Positions 11,937-58,241 of a stretch of DNA of 64,000 nucleotides are shown here, one piece after another (within the stretch, counting starts at the first letter, position 1; the number at the start of each line of letters is the position of its first letter). Origin of the DNA: Tubulanus polymorphus (Eukaryota > Animalia > Nemertea). The DNA is taken from the NCBI RefSeq assembly GCF_964204645.1, contig NC_134028.1:11083263-11147262 (forward strand), given 5' to 3'. The notes beneath the pieces are model-generated. The model had not been told where the DNA came from. It did no database searches and saw only the letters and a list, made by a program, of their open reading frames with translations. Both the position numbers and the translations under genes were made by a program.

Positions 11937-11942
11937 CTTCTT

Positions 11943-21222: not shown

Positions 21223-24200
21223 ATCCGCGTATAGGATAATAAATAAATTCAGTAAAGCATCAAGATCCTGATTACACCCCGAGTTCAGATGTTCCATAAA
21301 CGATAAAGTTGAGTTACCACGGTTAATAAAAAATTCATCAATATCATTCAAAAATAAAGAAAAAAGAATAGGTGACAGGTTTTCGCCTTGTCCTAAACCA
21401 CGATCAGCTGCGAAATAATGCGATGTATTACCCTTAGATCTAACACATGATTTGACGGAGTCATACAAACTTTTTACTACATTCAAAAAATTACCCGTTA
21501 TACAATTAGCTATGAGTTTCTTCCATTAAGTAACCCTACAAACCGAATCAAAAGCTTTCTTGAAGTCGACAAAGGCGCAGAAAAGTCTTCTTCCTTGACA
21601 AAGATACAACTCGACGATGGTTTTTAGGGTGTAAATATGATCGATAGTTGAGTATTTAGATCTAAAACCAGCCTGAGCTTCACTAATAATGTTGTTAATA
21701 TCTAGGAATGAAGACAGTCTTTGATTTAATATACTTGTAAATAATTTGCCTAAACAGCTAACTAGTGTGATGCCTCTATAATATTCATAATTATCTGGAT
21801 TGGCGGGGTCTCCTTTGTTTTTAAAAATGGGTTTAATGACGCCAACAGACTACATCTCTGGTACATGACCAGTTTTAAGTACTAAGTTAAAAATATTTTG
21901 TAATATGCTTGCTATACATGGATACTCATTAACTTTCAGCATTTCATTGATAATTCCATCTATACCAGATGCCTTGCTGTTTTTCAATAAAGATATAGCT
22001 TTGCCTATTTCTTCAGTAGAAATTTCACAGTTTAACATGGAGTTGTCATAATCAGGTGGGTCATCATCTTGAGTTTCAGTAATGGTATCAGTCTGCTCGT
22101 TTATATTCAAATCATTCAGTCTCATGAAGTGTTCAAGGAAAGTATCGATATCGATATTATCTTTGTCAACTTTTGTTCCTGTCGCTGAGTTTAGCATAGA
22201 CCAGTATTTCTTAGGGTTACTAATTTTACATTCTCTTAATTCTTTGATAAAGTTTTCTTTCTGTCTTCTTTTATATTCTCGAATAATTTTTTTTATATTT
22301 CCTAGACGAGTTCTTTAAAAATTCTAAGTTTGCAGAATTCGGACAGCTCCTATATCTATTTCGCCTGTAATTATACTCTTTCTGCGCTATTCTACAATCC
22401 CGACTCAACCACCTATTATACGCTTGCTTTTTACGACTACTGCTTTTCCTATGCTGCATAAGATAACACTCATCGGCACTTTCTAATAATGACGATACAA
22501 ATTTATCAGTAAGTTCATTTATACAGTCAGCTGTTTGCGTATCTGCATTCTGAACCCGTTCAACAGTAAATCGTTCGGGTTAGCGTTACACAACTTTGAT
22601 TCAACGGTAACAAAGAATTGATCTGATTTTTCTTTGTCCCACCTCACTGACGGGATTTCTTCCGTCCGCCCATTATTTTCGTTATCAACAACAGTGTCCC
22701 TAATGCCCGCATACAAACAGAGCGAGATAGCATTGTGTCCATCGGATAATAAAGGATCGAAAGGCATTATTTCAAATTTAGAAAAATAATTAAACAACTC
22801 AACATCACTCAAACAATAATCGATAACACAAGTGCCCTTAAAGGTATAATTACCAGACTGGTCACTGCCACACCTGCCATCAAGAATAACTAACGATTGA
22901 TTTTTACACATGTCAACAAGCTGATAGCCAGAATTATTTGTCCTTTTGTCTCTATTGTTTCGTTTAGTGGGTATGACATGTTTATACAGCTGTTGCGAGT
23001 CTGAATGGCACAACTGATCATTGTCAATTACATAATTATCAGGTTCTAAAGGGTCAGGAACACAGGAAGTATGCGCATTAAAAGTTCAATATCATAAAAA
23101 GCATTTTCTGAATAGTATCTACTTCCCTCAGGGGGAATATAGACTGCACCTAAAATAACATTTTTCGAGTGATTAGTTAAAGTTTTGTCTAGACAATACC
23201 ACGATACGTAAGAACAATCGGTCGGTATTGGTTTAATTTTACCGCGTAAATTCTCTCTATAAATTATACCTATACCACCTGAACCTTTCTTCGACAACTT
23301 TTTTCTGTTTTTAAAGTGGGCCACATGAGACCCAGGTAAGCTACAAGCTAAATCACCGTCCGCATCATCAAGATGGGTTTCGCTTAAACAAACAATGTCA
23401 AAACAAGCAATAAATTCATTAAATTCAGGAAAATCAAGTTTGCGGGATAAACCGCACACATTTAAACCTGCGATTTTCAACGCTTCTTTCTGAGAGTTAT
23501 ACGCATCAGTTTTGCTCGTATTAACACGGTTATTTACACTAAGATCATCTACGAATCTTAACGCTTCTTTCTGAGGATTATTTACATCGGATTCGTTCGT
23601 ATTTACACTAAACTCATCATCAACGACACAGTCGTAACTATTTACACAATCACCGCTATAACCGATGAAATCAATCACGAAACAACGATTTCGAGATAAA
23701 ATAACGATCCGGTCCAAATATTCGATATACGAACCCTCCACAGCGTGCTAATAATGATCCATCGAATTATCATTATCGCGATGATCGCGCTGCTCACGTA
23801 TAATCAACTTGTCCCGGACGAAAAACGCACGCTTACCGCTCGCTTTTGCCGCTCGTAATTCGGGCAGTTTCTCTCGTCTGCGCGCAGCCCATTCCTCGGG
23901 GACGTGTTCGCTAAGTCCAAGTGACGTACCCCGGAGGTTACGCGCCGCTAATCTAACCTGTTCTCTATCCTTGTAATGCTCCAATTTAGCCACAATCGCG
24001 CGCGGTTTTTTCTGTCCCGTTTTTTTCTTTCCAAGACGATGTGAACGCGCAAATTGAATCGAATCGACAGTCGCTTTTTCGATTTTAGATCGGTAACGCA
24101 GAACTCCTTGATAAGCTCCTCGGTGTCTTCCGGTTCTGATTTTTCCTCGATTCCATAGAAAATGAGATTGTCTTTCATGCTTCTCCACTGTTGTTTAAGT

Positions 24201-24261
24201 AGTAACTCGAGATCCTTGGATACGATCTCCTCGTGATGCACCTGATAGCGTCCAATTTGCT

Positions 24262-27200
24262 GTACATGTACGAATACGAATATTTATTTACACTCCAACC
24301 ATTTCCATGGTATATGGAGGAAAAACAGTATTTACAATAATTACATAAACAGTAGATAAAAGCTACAAAACTTAATTAACTGGTTTCACACTTATGTACA
24401 TAATATACTATTTACTATTTACAATACATCTATTTACAATGCATATACTACCGGAGGGATTTATATACATCTAGACCTATTTTGATGAATTTAGCCATAT
24501 TTAAAGTTGGATTTTTTAATACATCTAAGTTCCGAAAGGTATTTATATCTAAGTGGTTTTCACGGAGTTCGGTTAGCAAATTACAATCGAAAATAAAATG
24601 TACTTCGTCTCCTAAAACGTTGCAGGCGGGGCATAATCTATCGGTTCTGGGTAAATGAAGGTTTGATAATCTATTTACAGGTAGGAGATAAGACCCAATC
24701 CTGAACTAGAATAAACTGGTCACTAAATCGTCATCAAGCTGATTAATATAGTTTTCAAATTTAATATCCTTCTTATATTGCCTAAAATTAGCGTATAGCG
24801 AGTTATTATTCAACTTAAATCTATCTCTTGTACGTGCTGGTCTCGGAGTACACATTAATACCGCAGTCATCAAAAATCTTCTTAATAAATAACAGCCAGG
24901 GGCTCTTAAACCTGTCATTAACATAAATTGAGAGATATTTTATAAAGGATTGAACTTAGTTTAGTTTGCTTGCACGATACCGTTTTAGCCCAAAAATTGA
25001 TCATTCTACGCTTTACGTCAATATACATAGGATAACGCCCTAGCTCTGCCAGCACTTGCACATTATGGGAATATTTCGTAACTTTCATAATAATTTTACA
25101 GAATAAGCAGTGGAGGTTTTCTAGTAAATCGAGATTCTCATAACCCCAGATTTCGCAGCCGTATAGTGCTACAGGAGCGACACACATGTCAAATAGTTTA
25201 AGCATTACATCTATCGGAAGTTTCAAACGTCTACCCTTCTGAATAATAGAAAACATGGCTCTCATAGCTTTATCATAAAGATATTTTTTTGCTTTAGCGA
25301 AACTGCCATTCCAGTTGAATTTTACTCCAAGATACAAATAATCTTCAACTACCTCTAACTCTTGGTTACCAAACATAAATTTTCTTGAAATTTTCTTGAT
25401 CCTACTTTTACTTCTAGCGAAGACTAATATTTTAGTTTTATCAACATTCACTGAAAGGCCATTGTCGGCGCAATATTCAAATAGTGTGTCTAAATGTAAC
25501 TGGAGAGATTTTTCATCTTCAGCAAGAATAACTGTGTCATCCGCATACAGGATAATGAATAGATTAAGTAAAGTCCCTAGTTTTGGATCACAATTCAGAT
25601 TCAGTTTTTCAATAAACGACAAAGTTGGATTACTGCGCGTGAGAAAAAACTCTTCAATATCGTTTAGAAATAGGGAAAATAGAATTGGTGATAAGTTTTC
25701 ACCTTGTCGCAAGCCTCTATCTGCAGCAAAGTATTGTGATGTGTTACCGTTAAATTTAACACATGACTTAACCGGGTTATAAATATTTTTAACTATATTT
25801 AAGAAATTCCCCGTTATGCTACTATCGATTAATTTTCTCCATAATGTAACTCGACAAACCGAGTCAAAAGCCTTCTTAAAATCAACAAAGGCGCAAAAAA
25901 GTCTCCTTCCCTGACAAAGGTACAATTCGACAATAGTTTTCAATGTATAAATGTGATCAATAGTTGAATATTTTGGTCTAAAACTGGCTTGGGCCTCGCT
26001 AATTATATCATTTGAATCTAGGAAAGCTGACAGTCTATGATTAAGTATACTAGTGAACAATTTACCTAGACAACTAACTATCGTAATGCCTCGATAATTA
26101 TCAGGATTAGTGGGGTCGCCTTTCTTCTTAAAAATAGGTTTGATTACTCCTACAGACCATGTTTCTGGAACATGTCCAGTTTTTTAAATACTAGATTGAA
26201 TAGGTTTTGTAGTATGTTAACTAAACAGGGATAACGGCTAAATTTTAATAACTCATTAGTGACTCCATCGATACCAGAAGCCTTATTGTTTTTAAGAAAG
26301 AGATAGCTTTAGTTACTTCATCGACAGTTATGTCGCAGTTAAGAATATGATTGTCATAGACAGGAGGTTCATCACCCGTATGTTCTACATGGTCATTTAT
26401 TTCGTTTGCATCGTTTAAATCATTTAGTTGCATAAAATTTTCGAAGAAGATATCAATATCAATATTAGCATTACTGTGTTTTGCACCAGTCGCGGAATTT
26501 AGCATAGCCCAGTACTTTTTCGGATTATTGATTTCGCAATCTCTTAGTTCTTTGATAAAAGCTTCTTTTTGTTTTTTCTTACTTTCTCGGATAATTCTTT
26601 TGTATTTCTTGGATGAGTTTTTAAGAGCGTCAAAGTTAGAAGGGGTTGGACGGCCCCTATAACGGCTTTTCCTATAATTATATTCTTTACGCGCATCCCT
26701 ACAGCTCCGTCCATACCACTTATTACGAACTGGGGTTCTACGACTCCTACTTTTCCTGTGATACATCAAATTACATTCTTCTGCACTTTCTAACAAGGAA
26801 GATACAAATCTATCAGTGAGCTCATTTATATTGTTCGGAGACTGGCTTACTAGGTCCTGCAGTCCATTCAAAAGTAGATCATTAAGGCCAATATCACATA
26901 ATTTAGATTCAACTTTCATGAAAAACTGATCCGATCTATCATTGTCCCACCTAATTGAAGGCTTTTCGTCTACTTGTTCATGGTTCTCATTATCAGCAAA
27001 AATAGGGACCTTAGAATTCTTAAGTAAACATAGTCTAAGTGGACTGTGCCCATCAGACAGTAAAGATTCAAATGGCATTATCTGGAAATCATAAACAGAT
27101 TCAAATAGGTCAATATCACATACAAAATAATCAATAACACTAGTTTTCCTAAAAGTATAATTACCAGACTGGTCACCACCACATCTGCCATTGAGGATAA

Positions 27201-29200
27201 TCAGAGAATGGTTCTTACAAAGATCAATTAGCTGATAGCCGGTATTATTAGTTCTTTTGTCTTGATTATTTCTAATAGTTGGGATATCTAAGTTAATTAA
27301 AAGCAGTGAGTCAATGGCAGGGTGTAAATCGTCCTCTATTGTCTGGTTATCAGGTTCTAGAAAGTCTGGTACACATGAGGTGTGAGCATTAAAGTCACCC
27401 GTAATTAGCACGTTAAAATCGTTTTCAATCTTTAGCTGTAATAATTCCAACTCTATTTCACTAATTGCTCTATTCGAATAGTATTTACTTGTTTCAGGGG
27501 GAATATAAACCACTCCTAAAAGTATGTTTTTATTGAACTTAAACAAATCCTTATCTAAACAGTACCAAGATACAAATGGGCACTCAGTAAGTATTGGATC
27601 TATCATACTATCTAAACAACGCCTATAAATGATACCGATTCCACCCGATTTCCTGTTCGAAATTTTCTCCCTGTTTTTTAAAATGTGATACACGAATCAG
27701 GCAAATCACGACTTAGATTCCCATCTACATCGTCGAGGTTGGTTTCAGATAAACAAATGAGATCATAGCTCCGAATAAAATCTTCAAATTCCGGGACACC
27801 GAGTTTACCATTAATACCACATATATTGAGACTCGCTACGTTGATGCTTTTGATTGGTTGATTATTATCGACGTCTAATTTGTTTTCTTCACTAATACTA
27901 GTATAATAATTGTCTAAATGGGTACCTCTAACGTTTTCAAGAGGGGAGACATCTTCAACTAAATTATCAATTACATCATAATCTTTATTTTCACTATTTA
28001 CATCTGAGTCATTATATCCATTATTTACAACACGATCATTAATTTCACTCTTTACATCAGGATAATCACAGAAAAGAGTAAAACTATCTACATAGTCCAG
28101 AGCATAGCACCGACCTTTCGAGAGCAACACTATTCGTTTGAGACATTCGATGCGTATAGTTCCCTCCGCCGCATCCTAATTGCTGTCCATGGGAGCGCGG
28201 TCCCGACGATCACGGATAACGAGCTTATCCTTAACGAAGTACGCGTTTTTCCCGCTGGCCTTCGCAGCCCTGAGTTCGGGTAGTTTCTCGCGCCAACGAT
28301 CGGCCCACTCTTTCGGCACTTGTTCGCTCAATCCCTTCGATGTTCAGGTTAAGTTTTTCGGTCTTTGAAATGTTCAAATTTCGCTACAATACCGCGTGGT
28401 TTTTTCTGATCATTCCTCGGACGCCCGAGTCGGTGAACTCTCGCAAAGTCGATAGACTGGACTACTTCGTCCTCCAGTCTAAGATCGTTCTTGCAGAACT
28501 CCTTAACCTTTTCCTCCGCGTCTTCGCCTACTGCTTCATCGATCCCGTAGAAAATCAAGTTATCTCGCATGCTCCGCCATTGCTGGTCTAACAAGAGTTC
28601 GTGATCGGAATTCGCGAGTATTTCTTGGTCCGCTACCTGTTTTTCTAGATGCTGAACTTTGTTACGCAGCATCTCATTCTCCTGCTTAAGAAGCCTCACG
28701 TCCTCGTGACAGTATTCGAGTGACTGCTTAACGTCATTCATGTTTTTCGAGATTGTCTAGCTTGTTGAGTTTACTAATAATCTCGTCCAGTTTCGCATAC
28801 AGCGCATGGTCGTCTCGCGGCGTCGTGGATTTCTGTTCAAGAATTTGCTTCAGTTGTTTTTCGGAGATGTGTATGGGTGTCGCAGTTGAGTTTCTGTTAC
28901 TGGTCTGGTTGCTCTTCGTCGTCAGTTTCGGCTGTTTTCTCGGAGGAGAAACGCTCTGCCGACTGCTACTCGCCATGACTCTCGTTGTTGGGTTGGAAGA
29001 GAGAGGGTGAAAAAAAACTTCGCGTTAAAATCGAAGATAAAACTTTTCTATTTCGAACAGGGTAATGCTCACACACAGCGTTAGGCGGTTAATGTATTGA
29101 TATTACTGGAAAATAGTTTTGATTATCAGTTAAAACTAACCTCGTTGCTTGTGTTCTATAGGAGCACACCGAGAGTACATGTCAACATCATAAATAGCGC
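24262..29200 (-). mobile_element. APE-RT non-LTR retrotransposon copy A (RTEX-like), near full length, frameshifted
   Basis: ORF1 ~28976-28176 (coiled coil plus L1-type RRM: MRDNLIFYGI, RVHRLG, RGIVAKF); ORF2 ~28150-24480 with GDFNA, SDGH, YADD and C-terminal C..C...DE.HF...C; 3' AATAAA then (TATTCG)2 tail. Confidence 0.9.
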
Positions 29201-30589
29201 CACCTGCGGGTTGAATATGAACTAAACGCACGGAGTGAAGGATAAATAGATGACTATTCCGCTAAATATTACGGCTAATTCGTGCTCCTTTTTTTCAATA
29301 AGTCACATCTCAGGTCGTTATATACTAAAGTTTCTTCTGGTTGATAAATCACGGAAAGTACAATTTTGATGGCATTTGCCCTTTAAGCCTCGATGAACGC
29401 ACGCGTTCGCAGTTTATCAACATAACATATACAAACAAAACCACATCAAATACCCGCCGACTTTTTCTACGATTTTACATCCTTACATGATTAAATCAAT
29501 TTCTACCAACGTTTTCGCATTTTTCATTCGTGTATCAAGTGTTTATCAGCATACCGTGTCGACCTCCAGTGATTAAGACGGATCATTTCCTCCTTTGAAA
29601 ATGATGAAAAATGATGGCGCTCGTGCTTGAAATGGAAACTAGTATCTTGTACGATGATGAGCGAGGAAAATAAAAGATAACAAGAGCCCCAAGGGGCACT
29701 ATGGCCAGCCTGTCAGCTTTTCATAAAATGGCAAATGATTATGCATTCTCTGGGTTAAATTTGTCAAAATACAGTCCCAGCTCAGAGTCAATACTACACA
29801 ATACAATCGTAGAATACAAAAGTAGCACAGACAGCGACTGGCTCTGGCAGGAACAAATACCTCCGATAAATCTTTTCCCTTGGTCTTATTGATCTTAATG
29901 CGGAATAGAATTAAATTTTCTGAAATTTGCTCAATAAAACAAAATAGAATTGGATTTGATGTTTTTATTTGTAATGATATTTTCTTTAGTGCTGATAAAA
30001 AATATTCCTCCCAAGAACCAAATCAACTAAAGCTTTCACAGGAATCGATCTTGAAATACAATTTTAGATCTGAAAATAAAACCCGGAAGTAAAACGGTAG
30101 ACGATACCGCAGGCTCACGTGAACACCTGCTGATTTCTGCGGCTAAGCCAATCATAGAGGAGTCTTTGCTTTCTGATTGGCTATTCAAAACCAATATTTT
30201 TGCGATCAGATATTCGCGAAAAAGCTCATATAAATTTTAACGAGGCCCTCTTTCAAAATTCAGCTACGTAGAGTTTGGAGCATGGATATAATGCTCTAAT
30301 GAATGATTTGTATGAATATATACTCAGTTGCACAGTAAAAGAGCCTTTACTCTGGAAACCATGTCGTTTAAATTCGCTCCATTTGTATAGTAATAGGCTC
30401 AGCCTACGGCTGGCCTAAAAATCTGAATCATTTATTTCTTTCTTGGAAAATGCGTGGTTTGGAAATCTGAATTTTCTGATGTATTTTGTAGGATTTCCTC
30501 AAAAAATGATCTGGGGGGGGGGGGGGCAAATTTCTAAGAGTCGTTAGATTCAACAACACAACATAACACATTTCTGTGTATTGTTTTAA

Positions 30590-33899: not shown

Positions 33900-35193
33900 A
33901 CATCAGAAACAGTAAACTAATAAACTAAACTAATGCGTATGTGATGATATAGAGCAAAAGTGGTCAGACAGTTCTATGCGTATTGATAGACCGTCCTCCC
34001 TGTTCGATCTAAATCAGAACATACCTCAAGTGTCAAAGTCGGGATATGTAGGTGTAAGTAATAAAAAAGGCGTTGGGTTTAATTAATAGACTACGCTAAT
34101 GGTGTCGATTGTGATTCTGTTTACTACGTTCAGTCCGTTTGCATCCAGGTGTATAAGTACATTGTTAAGAGTCCAAATATGAAGGTTTTGTTGAAGCATG
34201 ATTTCTTGGTTTAGGCGAACTATTAGCGAGTTTTTGAAATAAATTATAGTGTTCATGCGGCCAGAGCCTTGTTCTAAATTGTAGTGATTTTTGTACAAAA
34301 TGGATTGTGCGACAAAAGGTAGTTCGCGAGTCTGCGTTTGAAGAAATCTGTTTCTATTGTTTTAGTAATTCCTGTGTAGACGATGTCTTGAGTGATATTT
34401 ATTGGTGTGTCTAGTATGCGTTGAATGATTGGTTGTATAGATGAATATAATTGCTGTGCTTCTGTGCATGAGAATACTACATGGTCATTCGTTGCCGCGA
34501 GTCCACAAATTTTACAATTTGGATCAGTTTTTATTTTCCAAAGTACTAGTTTTGAAGCTGTTGCCAGAGTATTATGCAGTAATTTCCAATGAATATCACT
34601 AAATCAATATGTTTATTATAAACTTCATTCCAAATTTCCGGCCAGTTCAGATCAGCAGTTAACATTTCAGTAATTTTGGTTTGCCCTATCGGTGTGATTT
34701 GATGGAGATTTTTTAATAATAGAATTCGATAAATTTGAGATGATAAAAGTTTTCCTGTAGTACACACTATATTACCAAATTGTACATAGATTTTTGGTAA
34801 TTCATCGGGATCTAAATTTTGGTCAGACAGAATTAGTTTCCAATGTTGCGGTATCGCATTGTATATACATGTGTGTTTAAATTTATTTGTTAATGGAATT
34901 TCGTTAAATGCTTTGTAGTTTCCACGATTATCGAATAGATGTCGTAGATTGATTATACCGTGATGTATGTATTCCGTGAAATTGGTTTTCTTGTTGAGCT
35001 TAATTTTTGGGTTGCCAAAAATAGGTTTTTGCAGAATTTCGGTAATAGTCTCAGTTGTAACTAGATGTTGTTGAAAAACTGTCCATGATTTTAATAAATG
35101 TCTGTAGTAGTCATTTGTAATGACTTTTTGGGGTATTTCATTGTGAATGATGTTTGAAATATTCCAGCCTGGGCCTAGATATTTTTGCAGATT
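33900..35193 (-). mobile_element. L1/Tx1 LINE ORF2 C-terminal remnant (3' flank of the Polinton target)
   Basis: WKLLHNTLAT....WKIKTDPNCKICG....DHVVFSC zf-RVT-like motif in hand translation. Confidence 0.75.
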
Positions 35194-35278
35194 AGTAATT
35201 GGGAAAGTAGGCTTTCATACCAGAGGTCGAAGGTCGACCACTCATCACCACAAGTAATTTTTTTTCCTTATAAATGGG
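35194..35278 (+). repeat. Left terminal inverted repeat
   Basis: Exact reverse complement of 52465-52549. Confidence 0.97.
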
Positions 35279-38200
35279 GGAGAATGAACACCAACCAGAA
35301 AATAATAATGTTAATAAAAATCAATATTATTGCACATATTGTAAAAAATACATCGATAAATCCCAAAAATCACGACATGAAAAATCTGCAAATCATATAA
35401 AAAATGTAATAGATTTTGAAACTCCAAAAAATTCCAATGAAAGAAAAGAACGATTAGAAAATATGAATGTGGATGAAATAAAATGTGAAGTTTGTAATGA
35501 ATTTATAGTAAAAAGGAATTATAATAGACATCTCGAATCACAAAAACATTATAAAAATTTAAATAAAAATGTTTTAGGAACAGAATATTTTGATAATAAA
35601 CCTCAACAAGTAAAAAAATCAACCTCAAAAACTAAATCCATTTCAAATAAACCTTACATGGAAAATGTTAGAAATTATATTGATTCACTAGAAATAAAAG
35701 ATACAATTGAAATTTTAGAAACATTACGTAGTAAAATTGGTCCAGCAGCTATTATATTTAGATTTTTTAAAGGAACAACAATAGAAGATTATAGCAAATT
35801 TAGTGAAGTAATAGAAAAGATACTAGATTTGATAACAGATGTTGAATATCCAAAAATTAGTATCTCTGGGAAAGTAAGTTTTTTAAAGTCAGAAGATAAA
35901 ATGGATTATAATATTCAAACACTCTCTGAAGAAAAAATTTCAAAAACACAAATAAAAGAGAAGTTAGAAAAAATATTTAATGAATTTAAACGTCATATTG
36001 AAGAAAGATATTTTGAGGGTTCTGGCTTAACATTGAATGAAATTATATATTTAGATTTAAATGTTTATAATACAAAAAGGAATAAAACATCAAAAAGTAA
36101 TAAAATGTTTAAAAATGATTCAAACTTTACAACAGAAAAGGATATTAAAGCATCATCTTATATTAAATTACCATTTACAACAAAAGCAGTAATAAATATT
36201 CAAAATGAAGATAATAAATGTTTTCTATGGTCAATTATTAGTTGTTTACACCCAACAGAAGATATGACGCATAGTTTTAGAATAACAAATTACCGGAAAT
36301 ATGAAACATTATATAAAATTGATCAATATCCAGTAACTATAAAAATGATTCCTAAAATAGAAAAAGTTAATAATTTAAAAATAAATGTATTTGAATTAAT
36401 GCAATTACCAAAGACAAAAGGTGAAAATATTAAAGATTATACATTGGAAGCTTTATATTTAACAGAATATTATGATGATGAAAATGCTATAGATTTGTTA
36501 TATTACAAAAAAGATGAAAATGAACATTATACGTGGTTAAAACAAATTGATTTATTCTTTAGAACAGAAAGTGATCATCATAATAAAATTTATCTATGTA
36601 GAAAATGTTTATCTAAATTTATGACTGAGAATGCGTTACTAAAACATAAAGAATTATGTGATAATAAAGATTTTTGTAAATTAATAATGCCAACAGAAAA
36701 CGATTATAAATTGAAATTTACTAATCATAAATTTAAGAATATTGTTCCATTTGTAATTTATGGGGATTTTGAATCGTTGAATAAAGAATTAACTGATCAA
36801 GATAGAAAAGAAATATATAACAAAAAGCAATTATTAAAATCAATGGATAAAGGAAATGAATTAAATGAAGACACAATACAAGACCCGCCAATTATAAATA
36901 CAATTAAAAAAGTTCATCAAAGAGCTGCTGCTTATGGAATTTATATAAAATCAAATTATCCTGAATTATATGAAAGTCAATATATTTCTTTTAGAGGTGA
37001 AAATGTAATTAATGATTTTTGTGATAAAATGATTGAATTAGAAAGTGATTTTGCAAAATTATTAAACAAAAATAAAAGAATAGTTATGACAAAAGAAGAT
37101 GAAATTGATTTTAATTATGCAACTCATTGTTGTTATTGTGAAAAACGTTTTTATTCATTTGATAAAAGAGTTAGAGATCATGATCATTTGAATTCAAAAT
37201 ATCGTGGAGCTGCTCATGAAGATTGCAATTTACAAGCTAAAAAAGTAAATTTCGTACCAATATTATTTCATAATTTATCAGGATATGATACCCATCTATT
37301 TATAAAACAATTATCGGGAAAATTGGGCGCAATTAATCAAGAAATAGAAGAATATAATGCTATGAATGAAGCAAATGTAAGAAAATATGATTTTAAACTA
37401 TTAGCTAAAACATCTGAAAATTATATTTCATTTCAATTTGGTTGCATTAGATTTTTAGATTTTTATAGATTTCTAGCAAGTTCATTAGATAATTTATCAA
37501 AAAGTTTAGTGATAATGATTTTGTTATAACTCGATATTATTATCCAAATGAACAAGATTTTAAATTATTGAGATATAAAGGCACAATTCCTTATTCATTT
37601 TATAAAACACACAATGATTTTAATGTAACAGAATTATTAAAAGATCAATTTTATGATCAATTAAAAGAGGAGTATGTGAAAGACGAAGTTTTTAATAGAA
37701 CATTAAATATTTGGAACCATTTTAAGATGAAAAATCATGGCGAATTAGTTGATTTATATTTAAAATCAGATGTTATGATATTGGCTGACATATTTGAAAA
37801 ATTTAGAGAAGTTAATTTGAATCATTTTGATCCTTGTTATTGCTACTCTAGTCCTGGTTTAACCTGGCAATGTGGTTTAAAATATACAAATGTAGAATTA
37901 GATTTATTAAAAGAACCAGATATGGTTTTATTATTTGAAAAATCAATTAGAGGTGGAATTAGTGGTGTTATGGGAGATAGATATTTTAAAGCAAATGATG
38001 AATATAAATTATTATATATTGACGCCAATAATTTATATGGTTGGGCAATGATGCAACCTCAACCATATAAAAATTTTATATTAACAGAAGTTGAAAATGA
38101 TAACAAAACTGATTCGGAAAGCGCAATTGCGAGTTTAAAAGATGAAGCACCAATTGGTTATTTCTTCGTAGTTGATTTAGAATATCCTGAAAATATAAAG

Positions 38201-40332
38201 TTTAAAACAAGAAACTTACCTTATTGCCCAGAACATTTAACTGTAGATGATAGTTATTTAAGTGAATACCAGAAGAAAATAAAACCGAAAGATCATGTTT
38301 TTACAGAAAAATTAATACTTACTCAAAATAATAAATACAATTATATTGTTCATTATAGAATGTTAAAATTTTATCTAAAACAAGGAATGAAATTAAAGAA
38401 AGTACATAGATATATTGAATTTAATCAATCGAAGTGGTTAGAAAAATATATAGATTTCAATACTCAACAGAGAACAATATCAAAAACAGATTTTGAAAAA
38501 GATTTCTTCAAATTAATGAATAATAGTTTTTATGGTAAAACATGTGAAAATATTAGAAATAGAAATGATATTGAATTAGTAAATAATTCTGAAAGATTAA
38601 GACATTTACAATCAAATCCTAGACATTTAGGAAATAAAAGATTTGAAGATTATTTAACAGCAGTTAAATTAAAAAGAACATCAATGAAATTTAATAAACC
38701 TATATTTATTGGTTCGACTGTTTTAGAAGTATCAAAATTATTAATGTATGATTTTTATTATAATGTTTTACAACCACTTTTTGGGGAAAAGCATATTGAA
38801 ATATTATATTTTGATTCTGTAACAGCTGACACCCCAATATTATTAAAATGTAATGATAAAATGTTGATAAGAAGAATTTCAGAAATAATTCCAAAACAAA
38901 ATGAATGTTATATTTCATATGGAGAAAAAGAATTAATACAAATAAATGGTTTAATGGATGTTTGGACAAGAAATGAATGGAAAAAATTAAAGAATATTAT
39001 TAGGCATAAAACAAATAAGAAAATCTATAGAGTTAGAACTAAATTAGGATTTGTTGATGTTACAGAAGATCATAGTTTAATTAAACGAAATGGCGATGAA
39101 ATAAAACCAACTGATATAAAAATTGGAGATGAATTATTGCATAAAAGATTTTCCCAAAGAATGAATCATATGTCATTTGATGAAATAATTGATAATATTT
39201 ATAATATAGAACCCGAAACATTAGAAGAAAAAGAATATTTTATCAAAGGATTTTTCATGGGTGATGGTTCAGCAGGTGTGTATAATTATGTTAATCGCAC
39301 TCAATATTGCTGGTATTTATGCAATCAAGACTTAAAATTATTAGAAAGAATAAAGAAATTCTGGGAAGAAGTTTATCCAAATAAAACATTTAAAATCATG
39401 GATGTTATGAAATCAACAGCAGTTTATAGAATACTTGTAAATAATCCTAGAGTTTGCTATAAAATATAATGATGAATTCTTTATTCATGCAATAGTTAAA
39501 AGTAATACTTCAACAAAAGAAAAGATAGTTCCAGATTATGTATTAAATGCAAAAAATAATTTAAGAAAATGGTTCTTCATTGGATTCTATGCTGCAGATG
39601 GTTCAAAAAGTTTCAAAAATCGCAAAACAATATTTTAGCTCAAAAAGGAAAAGTTGCTATATCAGGATTGAATATATTATGCAGTTCATTAGGATTTAAT
39701 ACGAATATTGGATTGATTAAATCTAAACCAAATTGCTTTAATTTAAGACATGTAGAAAATGAGTTAACAGAAGAAGTTAAAGATTTATTTGAAATATATA
39801 ACCCAACTGACTATGTTTATGATTTATCAACAGATGATGGAACATTCAATTCTGGGTTCCCATTAATCCAAAAAATACCGACGCCTACATACTAAAAATC
39901 AAGACAAATGACATAACAAAAGACTTAAAAACATTAAAACATTATTTTGATTTTAGCAATTATCCCAAAGATCATGAACTATTTAGCAATGATAATAAAA
40001 AGATTCCTGGGAAATTTAAAGATGAATTAGGGGGTGATGAAATGATTGAATTTGTCGGGATAAGAAGTAAAATGTATAGTTACAGAACAAAAGATCATGA
40101 AGCTAAAAAGTTAAAAGGAATAACAAAACATGTGGTTGATAAACATATAGAATTTCAAGATTATATAAAGTGTTTATATAAATCAATTGTAATGAAACAC
40201 AAAATGAATTGTTTAAGATCAGAAGATCATGAGATGTACATTAATGAAGTTGAAAAAACTAGTTTAAATCCATTTGATGATAAAAGGCATATTTTAGATG
40301 ATGGTATAAAAACATTACCTTATGGTTATTAA
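35274..40332 (+). pseudogene. pPolB: Protein-primed family B DNA polymerase (zinc fingers, OTU-like protease, exonuclease with EndoVII/HNH insert, polymerase), intein-containing, frameshifted
   Basis: NKCFLWS...EHY; YGDFES, FHNLSGYD, YLKSDV; RDHDH...AH..CN; YIDANNLYG, KLMNNSFYGK, YFD|TDA, RSKMYSY; frameshift at ~37510 plus three in the intein. Confidence 0.95.
38816..39876 (+). mobile_element. Intein with LAGLIDADG homing endonuclease, inserted at polymerase motif C
   Basis: Block A SVTADTPI; block B VDVTEDHSL; blocks C/D/E FIKGFFMGDGS, KIVPDYVLNA, FFIGFYAADGS; block F YVYDLSTDDGTFNSG; end LIQKN followed by +1 Thr. Confidence 0.92.
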
Positions 40333-40592
40333 AATGGATCTATATCATCAAACTCGAAATCACTATTGGTTTCTTCATTTTCATTTAATTGTTTAGTTTC
40401 TTCTTCCATTCCATTTTTTTCATTTAAATAAAGTTCTATCTTGTTCCACATTTCATCTCGCTCTCTTTGTTTCTTTTTGTTTGTTAATTCGTCAAATGGA
40501 ATTATAATATCTAGGTTTAAATAATTTACAATCTTATTTAAAAAGAATTCATAATTTATTGAATCTGTTATTCTATTTTCCAAATGATACAT
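40329..40592 (-). CDS. Small acidic-tailed viral protein (or C-terminus of the zinc-finger gene)
   Basis: ORF coupled by TAATG to the upstream ORF; converges on the pPolB stop. Confidence 0.5.
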   Translation of the reverse strand: MYHLENRITDSINYEFFLNKIVNYLNLDIIIPFDELTNKKKQRERDEMWNKIELYLNEKNGMEEETKQLNENEETNSDFEFDDIDPF

Positions 40593-41627
40593 TAATATTT
40601 GTTTGAATATTTTTTTATATTTTCCATATCTTCTTTAAATTTAGGTTTTTCATAATAATCGTTAGATAATAAATATAAATACATTTTCTTTTCTTTTGTG
40701 TTAAATGTTGACGGAATAATTGTATTTATAATATCTTTTTTAGTTATTTCACCATTTTTATTTTCTATTATTTTCATTTTTTCAAGCCATTGCATATATT
40801 CTGGTGTATGATCTTCCATAGAAAATATTTTAAAAATTTCATCTAGATAATTTAATTTTGGTTCTATGAGAAAATCTCTAGTTTTTTCTTCACCCCATAA
40901 ATTCCTTTGCCATCCACAATCAACACAAAATATCTCAGTACCCTCTTGTCTTAAGGTCGCATAAATACATTGTGGGCATTTTTGTTTATAATTTATTGGT
41001 AATAGATCTTCATTAAGCTCTTGGTATTTTCTTACGTTTTCTTTATGTTTTATTGTTCTATTATGTAGATTTGAATTACTTGCTGTAATAATCAATTTAC
41101 AATATTTACAATAATATGTTTTTCTTGTTTTTCTTTTCTAACTTTTCAACTGTTTCTTCATTATCTGGTAACGTTTTCTCATATTTTATTTTTTCTAATA
41201 AATTATTTTTTCTTTCATTAAATTCAGTTTCAAATTTATTATAAATTTTATCTATATGTACTTTACGAAATTGATGATTCTCCCAATCTTCTATATTTTC
41301 AGGGCTATATTTTATTCGAGAAGGCTCGCAGAAATGATCTTTTATATTATCCTTATCATAGAATAAGAAAGGTCTTTTCCAAATAACTTCAGGTTCAACT
41401 TCAGCAGAATTACTATTACTTTCATTACTATCAACATTAGCCGTTGCGCCATTAATTCTACACTTCTCTGAATGTTTTTTAACATAATTTCTTGAGAATA
41501 ATTTATTACATTTTGGACAGTTTATTTTAGGGGGTTTATAATTTTCATCATGTTTTTTCATATGTCGAGCCATATTACTTTTTCTTAGAAGTTCACCACA
41601 AATTTCGCATGCTATCTTCTCATCCAT
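40592..41627 (-). pseudogene. Multi-zinc-finger viral protein, single frameshift near 41130
   Basis: CEIC..H...H, CPKC..H...C, YYCKYCKLIITASNSNLHNRTIKH upstream of and in frame with the second ORF, CPQC..CVDC ribbon; TAAATG start. Confidence 0.7.
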
Positions 41628-41695
41628 TTATTTAGGAAAAATTTTATTAAAATTAATTTTTAGTGATGATCGGTAATTTTTTTATGTTATAAATA

Positions 41696-42454
41696 ATGGT
41701 AGAATTAAAAGAATACACAATATTTGTAGATTCTAGAAAACTTACAAATTATAAATCACATAATTTACTAGTACAATTAGATAGAGAATTTAAGAATTGT
41801 GTTGATTTAAAATTAGTAAATATAAGTTTATGTAACTCATTTTACAATATATCGGATAAAAGTCTAGAACATTTAATTTTTTCAATCTTTTACAAAAAAA
41901 TGAATGAATGGTATTTTATATATTTAAAACCAGGATTATATAATTTAGATACATTAGCACAAGAAATTAATAGAAAAGCTCGAGCTAAATTAGGAAGTGA
42001 TTCTAAATTTAATATTAGAATTTTAAAAAGTGATAGTTCTAATAAAATAAAGATTAGGTTAGATAATAACGAACAATTTAAATTTACAGTAAGAAAACCT
42101 TTAGCTAAACTGTTAGGAATTAACCCAAATATTGTTACAGCACACGCAGAAGGTAGATCAAACTTAATACCTTTTACACACTTTTATATTTATTGCAATT
42201 TGATTGACCCAACAAAAACATTTGAAGCAACTAAAGATACAATTTGTAATTCTGGTTTATTAAATATTTTACCATTAAAAAATGTCAAACAATTTGGAAC
42301 TCAAATAAATTATAATTTAACTGAATGTGATTTCAAACCTTGTATTCCACATTTCAATAATTTTAAATTAGAAATAAGAAATCATAATGGTTATTTAATT
42401 GATTTGAATAACTTTCCTGTAATTTATGAATTAGTTATAAGATGTAAAGAGTAA
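41696..42454 (+). CDS. Putative minor capsid protein (penton, single jelly roll)
   Basis: VDSR, KLVNISL.NSFYNI, KPGLY, LAKLLGI, YIYCNLID, LEIRNHNGYLIDLN pattern typical of Polinton/virophage pentons; 252 aa. Confidence 0.75.
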   Translation: MVELKEYTIFVDSRKLTNYKSHNLLVQLDREFKNCVDLKLVNISLCNSFYNISDKSLEHLIFSIFYKKMNEWYFIYLKPGLYNLDTLAQEINRKARAKLGSDSKFNIRILKSDSSNKIKIRLDNNEQFKFTVRKPLAKLLGINPNIVTAHAEGRSNLIPFTHFYIYCNLIDPTKTFEATKDTICNSGLLNILPLKNVKQFGTQINYNLTECDFKPCIPHFNNFKLEIRNHNGYLIDLNNFPVIYELVIRCKE

Positions 42455-42470: not shown

Positions 42471-42827
42471 ATAATTATAACTGTTGGACCGAGTATATGT
42501 TTTGGATTTGATTTTAAACGTGAGAAAGAAATGAAATTTAACATTAATGATGTAATTACACATATTAAAAATATTGCATTTTCTAATGAAACAACATTTG
42601 AGTATAAAACAACAATAGATAAAGAAACTTTAAATGTAGAAAAGATTACTAATTTAATTAGAGAATCTTTAAGATTTTATGAATTAGATGAAGATTTTAT
42701 CATCGATGATATTAGAAAAATAATAATTGAAATATATACAAATGAAACTAGTAATAAAATAAATGTTGAATTAATCATCACTAAGATAACTAGATATTTT
42801 GAAGATAGTAATTTTTTTGATAAATAA
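42471..42827 (+). CDS. Small viral protein of unknown function
   Basis: ORF 42531 extends in frame to TAAATA at 42471, a probable mutated TAAATG start; homologue at 6150. Confidence 0.65.
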   Translation: MIITVGPSICFGFDFKREKEMKFNINDVITHIKNIAFSNETTFEYKTTIDKETLNVEKITNLIRESLRFYELDEDFIIDDIRKIIIEIYTNETSNKINVELIITKITRYFEDSNFFDK

Positions 42828-43044
42828 ATGAGTGATAATAAGTGGATAATAACTGGATTATATAATGGAGCATTACTATCAGTTGGAACTGTTGGTTATT
42901 CAATGGTATTAAAAAAAGTATTCAAAATGGGAAGTGTTAATGTTGATAGATTTGATATAAATGATATCTTGAAGTTAACATTAGCAATTACTTAATTTAA
43001 CTATTGATTATTTGGAAAAACAAAAATATATTCCTCCCATATAA
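42828..43044 (+). pseudogene. Small hydrophobic viral protein (not in the ORF track)
   Basis: MSDNKWIITGLYNGALLSVGTVGYSMVLKK...DYLEKQKYIPPI; lesion near 42993; homologue at 6436. Confidence 0.7.
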
Positions 43045-43068
43045 ATGCATAATTTTTTTACTAAATAA

Positions 43069-43491
43069 ATGGCCTCTGCAATTATAACTATGATAGGATC
43101 GGCAATTGTTAACGCTTTGGCATTTACTGGTGGTGGATATTTATTTAAACATATTGATAAAAATAGTTTATTAGGAGAACAAAGAAGACATAACTTAGCA
43201 TTAGAGAAATACAATAAAGCAGCAGAAGAATATAGAGAAAAGAGGCAAAACTATATGGATTATATTAACAAAGAATTATATGATCAGAAGATTTCACATA
43301 GAGATTTTCAATCAGTTGATGATGCAATGAGTTTATATAACGCGGTAACAAATAAAGAAAAATTACATCTATACAAACCCAAATTATCAGATTATTATAC
43401 CCCAAGTAAAGAACAACAGAAATATGAAATAATATGGATTTTAGGTGGAACTATTATTGTTATATTTGCTGCTTATAAGTTTACTAATTAG
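43069..43491 (+). CDS. Small membrane protein with hydrophobic N-terminus, ExxRxNxxxE motif and C-terminal TM
   Basis: MASAIITMIGSAIVNALAFTGGGYLF; EQRRHNLALE; IIWILGGTIIVIFAAY. Confidence 0.8.
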   Translation: MASAIITMIGSAIVNALAFTGGGYLFKHIDKNSLLGEQRRHNLALEKYNKAAEEYREKRQNYMDYINKELYDQKISHRDFQSVDDAMSLYNAVTNKEKLHLYKPKLSDYYTPSKEQQKYEIIWILGGTIIVIFAAYKFTN

Positions 43492-43510
43492 TAATTTTTT
43501 TTCTAAATAA

Positions 43511-43936
43511 ATGGAAGATAATATTGATATTATTCCTCATGATATAAATAAAACTAGATTAAAAACATATTTAGAAAAACAAATATTAGAATTTGAAAGT
43601 GACTTAAAGATAAAAAAGAAAAAATATTTAAAAAGTAAAATTATATATTATCTTATTATTAGTGGTTCGGTTACAATTAGTTCTGTAATAACATTTTTAG
43701 CAATATTCAGCCCATTAACACCTTTAGCTATATCAATTGGTGTGTTAGGATTAAGTTCAAGTGTTTTAACCGGTATAAGTTCAAAATTGAATATTAAAAG
43801 TAATAAAGAAAAAATTAAAACTAATATAAAAGAAATTAATAAATTAAAGAATACACTAGATTATATAATAAGTTTAAATGGTCATATAACAGTTGAAGAA
43901 CAAGATAAATTATTAAAAGAATTAGTTAATTATTAA
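43511..43936 (+). CDS. Two-TM viral protein with flanking coiled coils
   Basis: Hydrophobic hairpin in the middle; homologue at 7122. Confidence 0.8.
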   Translation: MEDNIDIIPHDINKTRLKTYLEKQILEFESDLKIKKKKYLKSKIIYYLIISGSVTISSVITFLAIFSPLTPLAISIGVLGLSSSVLTGISSKLNIKSNKEKIKTNIKEINKLKNTLDYIISLNGHITVEEQDKLLKELVNY

Positions 43937-46839: not shown

Positions 46840-48084
46840 ATGAGTGGGAGTTATATAAGTCCTTCTAAGATTTCTAGAATATCTAATGCTATTAAAGCAG
46901 AAAGATCACATCATATAATTACTCATAACCCTTCAAATATTAATCCCGATGAAACTTTATATGTTAGAATTCCTAGATTAACACAAAATACTTTTTATGT
47001 TCCAAATAGTATTTATTTATCAGCCGATATAAAAGTAACTGGTCATGATAACAATTATGTTGATGATAATGTTGGAAGATATTTGATTAAAAAATCAACT
47101 ATAAAGATTGGTCCAGAAACAGTTTTCTCATTAGATGATTATAATTTATTTATGCATTATAAAGATTTATGGTTAACTAAAGAAAATAGAAATAATATGA
47201 TATTTCAGGGTATTCAATCAGAAAACCATAATAAATTAAGATCAGGAGCTAATGACGCAATAGTAACTCGTGCCACAGATAATTTGATTAAAAAGATTTA
47301 TGGAAGCAAATATAAAATTCCATTAGACTTTGAATTGATAAATAATAATGCACCTTTATATAAATACGCAATTCAAGATATTATATTTGAGATAACATTT
47401 GCTCCTGTAAATGAAATTGTATTATCTGGCGTTGTTAAAGATATGGGTTATAAATTATCGAATATATGTTTAGAATATAACACAGTAACTAATGAAAATA
47501 TTGCTAGCACAATTCAAACTCAATACAATCAAGGATTTTCATTATCATATGATTATATTGATAAATTTGAAACTGTAACTATTAATGCAAATGATGAAAT
47601 AATTAATGAGAATATTAACTTCCCAAGAAGATCTATTAAAGGTATATTAATATTTTTTACCATTGCAACATATTTTAATGGTGCAATAAAGGTAGATAAT
47701 TATTACAATCCTGAAATAACAAAAGTTGAAATAACTATCGAAGGAATAGCAAATAAAATATTTTGTCAAGGAATGAGAATGATTGATCAATGGCCAGAAA
47801 TTAGAAAACATTTTATGAATGAAAAAGTAAAATCATTTGAAAATTGTAATATTAATCAAATTGATTATTATACCGGTAATAAATATGCATTATGGTTAGA
47901 TTTTAGAACAACAGAGGATAATTCATTACATGGTTCTGGGAAAAAACTACAGAACACTAAAGATGGAATACAATTATTCATGAAAAAGAATAGAGGGGAC
48001 AAAAATTTTAAAATGCATATTTATATTATATCTGATGCACAATTAAATATTGTAAATTCACAGTTAGATAGTATTCAATATTAG
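46840..48084 (+). CDS. Putative double jelly-roll major capsid protein
   Basis: Intact 414-aa beta-rich ORF; THNPS.I...ETL.VRIP, KIPLDF, LWLDFRT, C-terminal MHIYIISDAQLNI; position next to integrase and ATPase. Confidence 0.75.
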   Translation: MSGSYISPSKISRISNAIKAERSHHIITHNPSNINPDETLYVRIPRLTQNTFYVPNSIYLSADIKVTGHDNNYVDDNVGRYLIKKSTIKIGPETVFSLDDYNLFMHYKDLWLTKENRNNMIFQGIQSENHNKLRSGANDAIVTRATDNLIKKIYGSKYKIPLDFELINNNAPLYKYAIQDIIFEITFAPVNEIVLSGVVKDMGYKLSNICLEYNTVTNENIASTIQTQYNQGFSLSYDYIDKFETVTINANDEIINENINFPRRSIKGILIFFTIATYFNGAIKVDNYYNPEITKVEITIEGIANKIFCQGMRMIDQWPEIRKHFMNEKVKSFENCNINQIDYYTGNKYALWLDFRTTEDNSLHGSGKKLQNTKDGIQLFMKKNRGDKNFKMHIYIISDAQLNIVNSQLDSIQY

Positions 48085-48114: not shown

Positions 48115-49242
48115 ATGGGAGGTAAAAAAACTCCTAATACTAAAGAACAATATTTAAGAAATTTATATTACAACCCTGAGAGTTCGGTTGCTTATTCTTC
48201 TACTAAAAATATATGGCGTAAAGTAAAACAAGATAAATTAGATAAGATAATCCCACACAATTTAGTTAAATATAAAGATATAAATGAATTTATGTTAGAA
48301 CAACCAACATACACAACACATAAAAAAATTGTTAGAAAATATAAAACTCGTAAAACTATGGTAAGTTATGTAGATCAACAGTGGCAAGGAGATTTAATTG
48401 ATATGAAAAATGTTAAGAAAGATAATGATGATTATTGGTGGTTATTGAATATAATTGATATTTTTAGTCGTTATGTATGGAGTTTCCCACTTTATAGAAA
48501 AGATGCTGTACAAACATCAAATGTTTTAAGAAAATTTCTTTCGGATGATTAACTAAAACCAGAAAAAATACAATTTGATGATGGAAAAGAGTTTGATAAT
48601 TCACTTGTTCATGAACTCTTAGACAATCATAATATTAAATATTTTTCAACAAAATCGGATAAAAAAGCAGCAGTTGTTGAACGATTTAATAGAACATTAA
48701 GAACAAGAATGTGGAAATATTTTACAGCAAATAATACTTTTAAATGGATTGATGTTTTGCCAAAATTGATAGAAGGATATAATAATTCTTATCATTCTTC
48801 TATTGGAATGAAACCTATTGATGCTAGAAAACCTGAAAATGCTGAAATTGTTTGGAATAATTTATATGGAGCATTTCTTGTAGATGATTTTGGTGAACCT
48901 AAATTTAAAGTTGGTCAAAATGTTAGAATTTCTAAGTATAAAAAGATATTTGATAAAGGATACGATCGAAATTTTACTAGAGAAATATATAAAATAAAAA
49001 AGGTAATAACAACAAAACCATATGTCTATAAATTAGAAGATTTAGATGGTGAAGAAGTTGATGGTTACTTTTACGAAGAAGAATTAAGTTTAACTACTGA
49101 AAATCTAGAACAAGAATATAAAATTGAAAAAGTATTAAAAACAAAAACTATTAAAAGAAAAAAATATTCTTTAGTAAAATGGGTTGGATGGCCAGATAAA
49201 TTCAATGAATGGATATTATCAAGTAAAATTAAAAATATATAA
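48115..49242 (+). pseudogene. Retroviral-type (rve) integrase with C-terminal chromodomain; in-frame stop at 48550
   Basis: WQGDLID, QFDDGKEF, VVERFNRTL (D,D,E); YKIEKVL...LVKWVGWPDKFNEWI. Confidence 0.95.
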
Positions 49243-49851
49243 ATGAATAAAGAATTATTTATATTTGAGCCTCATAATATGTTAATATCTGGCGTAACAA
49301 ATTGTGGAAAAACTTATTTTATATTAAATTTATTAGAAAGTGTTTATGAAAACTATTTTGATAATATAGTATTATTTTGCCGAACGTATGAATTTAATCA
49401 AACTTATGATAGAAATATTACTAGAAATAATAAATTTATTATATTAGATCCTAAAACAGTAAAAGAAAATTTAGATAATTGTATTAAAATAGCAATTGAT
49501 ATTTATAAAGGATCAAATACATTATTCATTATAGATGATTGCGCAAATTTACATGATTCAAAAGTTAGAGAAAGTGAGTTATGCTATTTAGCTTTCTCCG
49601 GGAGACATTTTGGGATAACAACTTGGGTTTTAAATCAAAAATATAATTCAATTGTTAAAGACTTTAGAGAAAACATTAGATTTCTAGTTTTATTCTACAA
49701 TAAAGATAGAAAATCGATGAAAAATGCACTTGAGGAAAATGATATTATTCCACATGATTTACATAATGAATATATGGATAAGTTGAAAAATATTAAAAGA
49801 TCAAAATTACTATTTAGATTACAACACCCATTTAAATATGAATTTATTTAA
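49243..49851 (+). CDS. A32-like genome-packaging ATPase
   Basis: Walker A GVTNCGKT, Walker B LFIIDD, GRH and LNQ motifs. Confidence 0.92.
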   Translation: MNKELFIFEPHNMLISGVTNCGKTYFILNLLESVYENYFDNIVLFCRTYEFNQTYDRNITRNNKFIILDPKTVKENLDNCIKIAIDIYKGSNTLFIIDDCANLHDSKVRESELCYLAFSGRHFGITTWVLNQKYNSIVKDFRENIRFLVLFYNKDRKSMKNALEENDIIPHDLHNEYMDKLKNIKRSKLLFRLQHPFKYEFI

Positions 49852-52144: not shown

Positions 52145-52469
52145 TTAATCAACAATTTCTAAATCATGATGACCGTCTTCATTTTTTCCATGATATATTA
52201 TTTTAAATCCTACTAAATCTTTCAATTCCTCTGTACTCAATGAAACCCATTTATCGGGTAAAAACACTTTAAATTCTCGTGATGTACTAACATTACAGTA
52301 GCTTAAATTAGCTGATACTTTCTCTCCATATTTAGTTTTTATCTTTTCTAATTTCAATATCTTATGTTCAATTTCTTGTAACATCAACTAACTTTTTTAT
52401 TTCAAATTGTTTTTTTGTTGGTTTAATTCTGTTATTTATTGTTGCTAAGAATGCTTTTCTATCTCCCAT
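52145..52469 (-). pseudogene. Right-arm gene starting at the ATG inside the right TIR, frameshifted
   Basis: MGDRKAFLATINNRIKPTKKQFEIKKL from 52469 continues in another frame into ORF 52145-52387. Confidence 0.6.
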
Positions 52470-52549
52470 TTATAAGGAAAAAAAATTACTTGTGGTGATG
52501 AGTGGTCGACCTTCGACCTCTGGTATGAAAGCCTACTTTCCCAATTACT
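52465..52549 (-). repeat. Right terminal inverted repeat
   Basis: Exact reverse complement of 35194-35278. Confidence 0.97.
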
Positions 52550-52760
52550 CAGATTGTAGTTGATAAGTGGTTTCCAGTGTGTTGGTTTTAGCGCATGTTT
52601 AAGTCTTCGACACCAAATGTCTCAAGTCACCCTGATTTACGGTACCCGTACTGAGCCGTCTGTACTGAATGTGTTTGTAATTCCTTTATTTTACTGTGTT
52701 TTTGGTTTTGTTGAATGGAACTGGCTAAATGCGTTGGCTTACCTAACAATGGGTTGAATC
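52550..52760 (-). mobile_element. L1/Tx1 ORF2 remnant (5' flank of the Polinton target)
   Basis: Joining across one CAGATT copy restores the frame WCRRLKHALKPTHWKPLINYNL-QKYLGPGWNI. Confidence 0.75.
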
Positions 52761-58021: not shown

Positions 58022-58241
58022 GGCTAAACAAAAATGATACCTTATTTCTCCGCAGCGGCCGGGTCATTTTTGTAAAATATGATAAAATTTATAAACAGTT
58101 CATTTCTATAGCGGCTGGGTCTGTTATGGTAAAATTGATCACGATTTTAAAAAAAGTAATGTATAGGGTAGATAGGCGGCCGGCCGGGTCAACATTTAAG
58201 CTCAGCAGAGCGGAGAAACAAGGTATCAATTTTTTTTAGCC
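58022..58241. mobile_element. PIF/Harbinger-like MITE
   Basis: TIR GGCTAAA.AAAA.TGATACCTT.TTTCTCCGC; TAA on both flanks. Confidence 0.65.

Follow-up and report, generated by a model that had tools for sequence, protein, structure and literature searches.

The closest described counterparts of the intein studied here are the pol-c inteins of Mimivirus and archaeal PolB (Ogata 2005, PMC549080). According to the accessible sections of that paper, they occupy the same site, YGD|TDS there versus YxD|TD here, and have in common with ours Ser1, the terminal Asn, the +1 Thr, the Thr/His of block B and a LAGLIDADG endonuclease. As set out in the available parts of two papers (PMC7765530, PMC549080), the active site is restored once an intein has been excised, empty sites are cleaved by its endonuclease, and repair copies the intein into them. 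Here, however, the host is a protein-primed Polinton polymerase (pPolB), with exteins that are barely alignable to RNA-primed PolB, and it belongs to an integrated multicopy element. Carriage into a nuclear genome by a virus-like element has likewise been described, for the inteins of endogenous viral-like DNA polymerases in Klebsormidium, Tetrabaena and a labyrinthulid (Gallot-Lavallee 2023, PMC10710043, available sections); those hosts are algae and a protist, whereas ours is very likely an animal, and the words 'polinton', 'maverick' and 'metazoa' have 0 occurrences in the accessible text and two supplements of that paper.

Nucleases inside pPolB are also on record, namely the HNH and VSR inserts (Jeong 2023, PMC10748475; Krupovic 2024, PMC11071308), and Krupovic 2024 speculates that these stem from intein invasions. 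In the available portions of both papers, the inserts come without a described splicing domain and lie elsewhere in pPolB, and unlike them the element described here has an HNH-like insert and a complete intein together; 'intein' and 'LAGLIDADG' have 0 occurrences in the accessible text and supplement of Jeong 2023. Animal Hedgehog/Hint domains also place a Hint fold in animal genomes, but they lack a homing endonuclease and are not inserted in the active site of a polymerase. For Metazoa, the accessible part of a 2018 survey counted 660 Hint proteins, 522 Hedgehog proteins and 0 inteins. The intein of Chilo iridescent virus, cited in PMC549080, is also from a virus of an animal, yet the available text describes it as glutamine-type, in a non-integrated giant virus and not in pPolB. 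The writer of the earlier note on this DNA knew of no such intein described from animal Polintons. This held within the literature searched, where we found no description of a Hint-plus-LAGLIDADG intein in pPolB or any other protein-primed polymerase or in an animal genome, and none in the accessible parts of PMC12220804, PMC8502044, PMC5718144, PMC13768754, PMC3671162, PMC5784728, PMC11071308, PMC10748475 and PMC10710043; subscription journals, Repbase notes and bioRxiv supplements, which were beyond reach, may mention one. The Polinton intein family is apparently undescribed.

We analysed a stretch of 64,000 nt, hereafter the window. The polymerase and its insert are laid out as follows.

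35274..38815, + strand: N-extein of pPolB, with zinc finger, HNH-like insert and exonuclease/palm (Pfam DNA_pol_B_2 E 1e-14, Endonuclease_7 E 0.03)
38816..39876, + strand: intein from Ser1 to the terminal Asn, Hint plus two LAGLIDADG motifs, 1061 nt, three frame breaks
39062..39073, + strand: block B (TEDH; T-x-x-H) in three-frame translation, kept in 10/10 intact Polinton inteins checked
39248..39268, + strand: LAGLIDADG motif 1, acidic residue retained
39582..39602, + strand: LAGLIDADG motif 2, acidic residue retained, frame shifted
39812..39876, + strand: blocks F and G (block F 39812-39832, terminal Asn 39874-39876)
39877..40332, + strand: C-extein of pPolB, first residue +1 Thr, 74-79% identity to the intein-less P0146, P0147 and P0149

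In three-frame translation, motif C of the polymerase was interrupted as ILYFD / SVTADTP at 38815/38816 and KN / TDAYILK at 39876/39877. The nucleophiles of an intein were present, that is, Ser1 at the N-terminus, the terminal Asn, and the +1 Thr at the start of the C-extein; the penultimate residue was Lys, which many relatives share. Three pieces of the insert, in different frames, matched the intact intein of P0001 in order, with 63%, 58% and 59% identity over 207, 60 and 88 aa. Because they align separately, the frame of the insert is broken at three places (near 39450, near 39635 and, within block G, near 39870), so that the window copy has no single open frame with its host protein, as found in P0001, P0004, P0138, P0139, P0140, P0148 and P0414. 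The first 210 aa scored 33.8 bits against the NCBIfam intein N-terminal model TIGR01445 (cut-off 24.5), and the matches to Pfam Intein_splicing (E 6e-5) and LAGLIDADG_3 (E 0.006) both stayed under the Pfam cut-offs. Insertion is between the Asp and the Thr-Asp of motif C, and the nearest kin are inteins at that same site. These results bear out what had been proposed from the letters alone: a motif C split by a 1061-bp insert with blocks A, B, F and G and both LAGLIDADG helices, an open reading frame hidden by three frameshifts, and YxD|TD as the pol-c site. The suggested profile search was positive with the NCBIfam N-terminal model and fell short with the two Pfam models. The insert at YFD|TD of the protein-primed polymerase is confirmed as a true Hint plus two-motif LAGLIDADG intein of pol-c type. 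We also considered a Hedgehog-type Hint domain as the identity of the insert; the endonuclease, the insertion site and the existence of empty alleles ruled this out.

Comparison with intein-less pPolB gave colinear alignments of the exteins. The N-extein was colinear with the intein-less P0143 and P0141, and the alignment to P0143 ran colinearly to 38818 and restarted at 39874 on the same residue. The exteins closest to the window polymerase (72-79%) are intein-less. The N-extein is itself broken once, near 37505, which makes a fourth break of the polymerase, absent from the earlier note.

Polintons/Mavericks are recognized by terminal inverted repeats, AG...CT ends, a 6-bp target-site duplication and a length of 15-25 kb. 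We found all of these, together with pPolB, a retroviral-like integrase and a packaging ATPase, in an element of 17,356 bp, a length within the Polinton size range. Its further features are as follows.

35188..35193, no strand: left 6-bp target-site duplication, identical to 52550-52555
35194..35281, + strand: left terminal inverted repeat, starts AG, 88 nt, 99% complementary to 52462-52549
40329..41137, - strand: VLTF3-like late transcription factor gene, in two frames (Pox_VLTF3 E 2e-5, 24.7 bits versus a cut-off of 25, on the 40329-40634 piece)
46840..48084, + strand: likely double jelly-roll major capsid protein (ESM Atlas matches 0.97-0.98, a lead)
48115..49242, + strand: retroviral-like integrase that carries a chromodomain and is interrupted by a stop (rve E 4e-5 and Chromo E 1e-4, each under cut-off)
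49243..49851, + strand: A32-type packaging ATPase (Pox_A32 E 3e-11)
52462..52549, + strand: right terminal inverted repeat, ends CT, pair of the left repeat
52550..52555, no strand: right 6-bp target-site duplication, matching the left copy

The terminal inverted repeats, the AG...CT ends and the 6 bases repeated on either side show that the element is an integrated Polinton; it is inserted in a LINE remnant (zf-RVT). The capsid candidate had no Pfam match and no PDB sequence match, and some of its matched ESM Atlas clusters have capsid families on 10-24% of their members. An ORF at 41693-42454, which gave no clear match in a Pfam search, may resemble a minor capsid protein. Among the ORFs scanned, which covered short ones in part, Pfam gave no match to any protease, nor to the Adenain protease or the OTU domain on PolB that are adintovirus traits (Starrett 2021), and we do not class the element as an adintovirus. 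The VLTF3-like gene, directly after pPolB, is a second link of the element to giant viruses. Besides the breaks of the polymerase, stops interrupt other genes of the element, a point likewise absent from the earlier note. Given the three breaks of the intein, the fourth near 37505 and these stops, the whole window copy is non-functional.

To look at other copies, we used raw whole-genome reads with the same species label (run X6, about 12 of every 100 reads). Reads of this one labelled species covered both element and flank. At the left terminus, 35194, 720 reads had unrelated loose ends, which points to many insertion sites and shows that the element is a multicopy family that carries the intein in this species. 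Read depth was 309-506x over the 14 bins before the intein, 139-291x over its own five bins and 231-361x beyond. Under the assumption of a 1-Gb haploid genome, the depth on the intein would correspond to on the order of 100 copies. The lower depth within the intein fits empty copies or faster divergence alike, and no read joint that skips the intein was found among the 15 of 78 joints listed. Reads differed in length from the window copy in 193/251 cases near 37505, 120/159 near 39450 and 26/94 near 39870, the break near 39635 lying outside the 12 of 40 read differences listed; decay is therefore at least partly particular to the window copy.

In successive homology searches, the same intein turned up in the Polinton-type polymerases of about 30 clusters (90% identity), namely 9 + 5 + 15 + 1, the set of 15 counting only clusters with a visible junction. 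Full-length, single-frame examples were P0001, P0004, P0138, P0139, P0140, P0148 and P0414. In 10/10 intact Polinton inteins checked, Ser1, T-x-x-H, both LAGLIDADG aspartates and the terminal Asn were kept. A predicted model of P0003 (mean pLDDT 68.6, mostly >80 over the intein) best matched the endonuclease-bearing inteins TliVMA, PI-PfuI and PI-SceI (best E 6e-15); the predicted Hint fold with an inserted two-motif endonuclease thus belongs to this intact relative, not to the broken window copy. The nearest relative of the window intein was P0001, at 63%, versus 46% or less for the four RNA-primed PolB inteins compared.

Several members of the wider family deserve mention. In the 55-member cluster P0287 (P0287, P0398, P0399, P0401, P0406, P0293), on long contigs, the intein forms an ORF of 362-365 aa that has a start of its own, with flanks of about 11 residues on the N side and, up to the stop, 4-7 on the C side, and it is possibly free-standing or ectopically homed; P0415, of another cluster, looks similar to this near free-standing intein. 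Outside Polintons, the same family occurs in T4-like polymerases, in the PolB of archaeal-labelled contigs and, at QD|TD, in viral-type topoisomerase II (P0007, P0053, P0081, P0085, P0014, P0023, P0024; loci L178, L179). Its non-allelic spread is wide. None of the 198 loci from viral, metagenome and prokaryote-genome scans had a pPolB (0/198). P0288, an intein-bearing pPolB, is filed under a bacterial symbiont MAG with a name that points to a clam, and is likely host-animal DNA in the MAG bin.

At a probability of about 0.72, we read the insert as a decayed copy of a selfish Polinton-pPolB intein that is predicted to splice, likely homes to empty copies and is likely of old giant-virus origin. 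This reading builds on what we observed of its anatomy and site, on the integrated multicopy element, on the intact relatives, on plus and empty alleles in two clusters and on a short intein-linked flank tract; splicing and cleavage of empty sites by this family are predicted from sequence. An intact copy would be translated as a precursor from one reading frame. Ser1, the Thr/His of block B, the Asp of block F, the terminal Asn and the +1 Thr would then excise the insert and rejoin YxD-TD, and with the rejoined polymerase active the insert would be of little cost. Once released, the LAGLIDADG domain would cut the empty site of other copies, whether integrated or replicating. When the break is repaired from an intein-plus copy, the intein would be transferred with some flank, and empty copies with an altered site sequence would resist cutting. 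By integrating, Polintons would bring the intein into the chromosomes of their hosts, among them this germ line, which is probably that of an animal.

The most direct signs of homing came from two clusters with both intein-plus and empty members, P0138 and P0006. P0138 has 136 members, of which 15 were listed and 13 usable (7 plus and 6 empty, on contigs of 0.09-1.0 Mb). Its protein alignment had 1121 columns, 114 of them variable and 10 without a residue common to the plus and empty groups. All 10/10 of these fixed differences lay within -7 to +44 residues of the site, and with 4 empty members instead of 6 there were 11. In the plus copies, the first downstream residues matched intein-plus members of other subfamilies; Val at +8 was found in the plus members P0003, P0012 and P0289 and in 0/8 listed empty members of those subfamilies. 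The empty members of P0138 had three different site sequences. According to the available part of PMC10643990, co-conversion accompanies intein invasion. A tract near the site and varied empty sites are thus as predicted by homing with co-conversion and resistant alleles. The tract is one linked block in one cluster, seen at the protein level in 13/136 members, and could stem from a single recombination event. The other cluster, P0006, included a plus and an empty member with flanks identical over 37 + 44 residues. We also noticed that Cys replaces Thr after the first Asp of motif C in 10/129 empty pPolB rows, clustered in the intein-richest lineage; escape from cutting is possible for these sites. 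The earlier note had proposed homing among Polinton copies, and the two mixed clusters give signs of it between Polintons; in the species of the window, no joint skipping the intein came up among the 15/78 listed.

Homing was also considered between polymerase types. The intein of P0004 was 42-49% identical to seven intact main-clade Polinton inteins and nested within the Polinton clade (98/95), with exteins about 20-30% identical or unalignable. An intein of this kind in a polymerase type with barely alignable exteins suggests that transfer between Polinton polymerase types is likely. In an extein tree, the intein was present in 13/110 rows and required 12 changes, a number as low in 179/500 shuffles, so that presence appeared scattered and unclustered; the set was enriched for intein-plus rows because the query carried the intein, and it omitted P0004 (no match at E 1e-20) and proteins in which the site could not be located.

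An account in which the intein entered a Polinton ancestor once and was inherited vertically with many losses, still splicing but no longer homing, and in which the P0138 tract reflects ordinary recombination between subfamilies, strikes us as unlikely, though it is the strongest of the alternatives. Within the main polymerase type, identity is about the same for inteins as for exteins (61/64/59% for the window and P0001), and such equality fits old vertical descent with many losses too. Also in its favour, the window groups with P0001 as its sister in the intein tree, and the exteins of both fall in one clade of 11 rows. Against this, many precise losses would be required, the starred branches forcing at least 8 changes; P0004 would be left unexplained, as would the centring of all 10 fixed differences on the site; and both LAGLIDADG aspartates are kept in 10/10 intact copies, contrary to decay.

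Returning to a homing intein of old giant-virus origin, we built separate intein and extein trees, as the earlier note had proposed. The intein tree comprised 57 inteins, with archaeal pol-c inteins as a long-branched outgroup and the window represented by its N-terminal piece; both trees omitted near-duplicates and inteins outside 315-440 aa. Eight Polinton inteins, the window included, formed one clade (100/100), in which the window was sister to P0001 (100/98). The nearest group to this clade was a sister (97/92) of 12 RNA-primed PolB inteins, and both lay within a wider viral-type radiation. The sister group includes the inteins P0014 and P0023 of T4-like polymerases, a label that is our reading of their motifs, the profile search giving generic PolB matches; NCBIfam left the sister-group polymerases unclassified. 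In IMG/VR, 13 of the best 20 matches were giant-virus MAG contigs, with identity up to 43%. Among 134 new representatives were 65 inteins of RNA-primed viral-type PolB versus 1 of Polinton type. Since the nearest kin are other Polinton inteins (63% versus 46% or less), the best reading is that entry from giant viruses into Polintons was old, probably at the base of a Polinton-wide family. Of the crossing that had been claimed from a giant-virus PolB into a Polinton pPolB, kinship to giant-virus PolB inteins is thus retained, and a one-off jump into this element is not. We infer that giant virus and Polinton may have co-infected the same cell. P0148 lay apart from the main clade in the trees, and a second, independent entry was considered for it; this was not established, an AU test keeping a single clade of all nine acceptable (p 0.244).

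The direction from giant virus to Polinton depends on a tree rooted with distant archaeal inteins, and with T4-like polymerases in the sister group the donor need not be a giant virus. A reversed or indirect route, in which a phage-like or cellular PolB supplied the intein or giant viruses received it from Polintons, would agree with P0014 and P0023 in the sister group, with related inteins on archaeal-labelled MAG contigs and with the long-branched root. We nevertheless hold it to be quite improbable, since Polinton inteins are a small clade in a far wider RNA-primed viral-type set (65 versus 1 among 134) and the best viral matches are giant-virus MAG contigs.

Considering a homing Polinton intein in its host, no host gene was identified within the 64,000-nt window. 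A FLYWCH-MULE transposase (E 1e-9), LINE remnants and satellites in the window make an animal host very likely, a conclusion drawn from these neighbouring elements and not from a host gene; the FLYWCH domain is described as mainly animal in the available part of PMC1702500. That the contig is from a protist or other contaminant, which would make this one more protist viral intein, is very improbable: it would accord with the missing host gene and with a small share of the stretch in one marine metagenome, but not with the transposase, LINE remnants and satellites, nor with an element lodged within a zf-RVT LINE remnant and spanned, with its flank, by reads of one labelled species.

The intein is of a known allele type; its host protein is of a new kind, and its host chromosomes are very likely those of a new kingdom. 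Homing needs donor and recipient DNA in one compartment, and so the intein would mark encounters of giant viruses with Polintons and of Polinton types with one another. This marker is relevant to the questions of whether Polintons replicate as viruses and whether they rely on giant viruses. With plus and empty copies in one multicopy family, the homing cycle of invasion, resistance, decay and loss may be countable inside single genomes. For annotation, intein inserts break pPolB alignments and escape notice in frameshifted copies. Going further, we tentatively suggest, at slightly less than even odds, that animal germ lines host active homing, in which a giant-virus-derived intein converts Polinton copies within and between genomes, selects cut-resistant empty sites, jumps between polymerase types and has become a near free-standing gene in one family. 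If true, this would be the first family of inteins to reside in the chromosomes of animals, and it would provide a dated trace of giant viruses and Polintons that replicated within one cell.

Lastly, the surroundings of the element showed several minor features. The window at about 6000-14400 is a rearranged remnant of a related Polinton, 89-94% identical to 42500-43800 and 71-79%, inverted, to the integrase/ATPase region; no pPolB match was found in it, and it holds inverted arrays of a 22-bp repeat at 9255-10500. Bordering this remnant, at 14708-15145 on the - strand, is a free-standing HNH-like ORF (HNH_4 E 0.016). Inverted repeats of ~160 bp, at 15727-29882, flank the FLYWCH-MULE transposase together with nested LINE copies. 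Satellite arrays with units of 154 bp and about 143 bp occupy 56696-63954, and these units contain a motif that we take to resemble a CTCF site.
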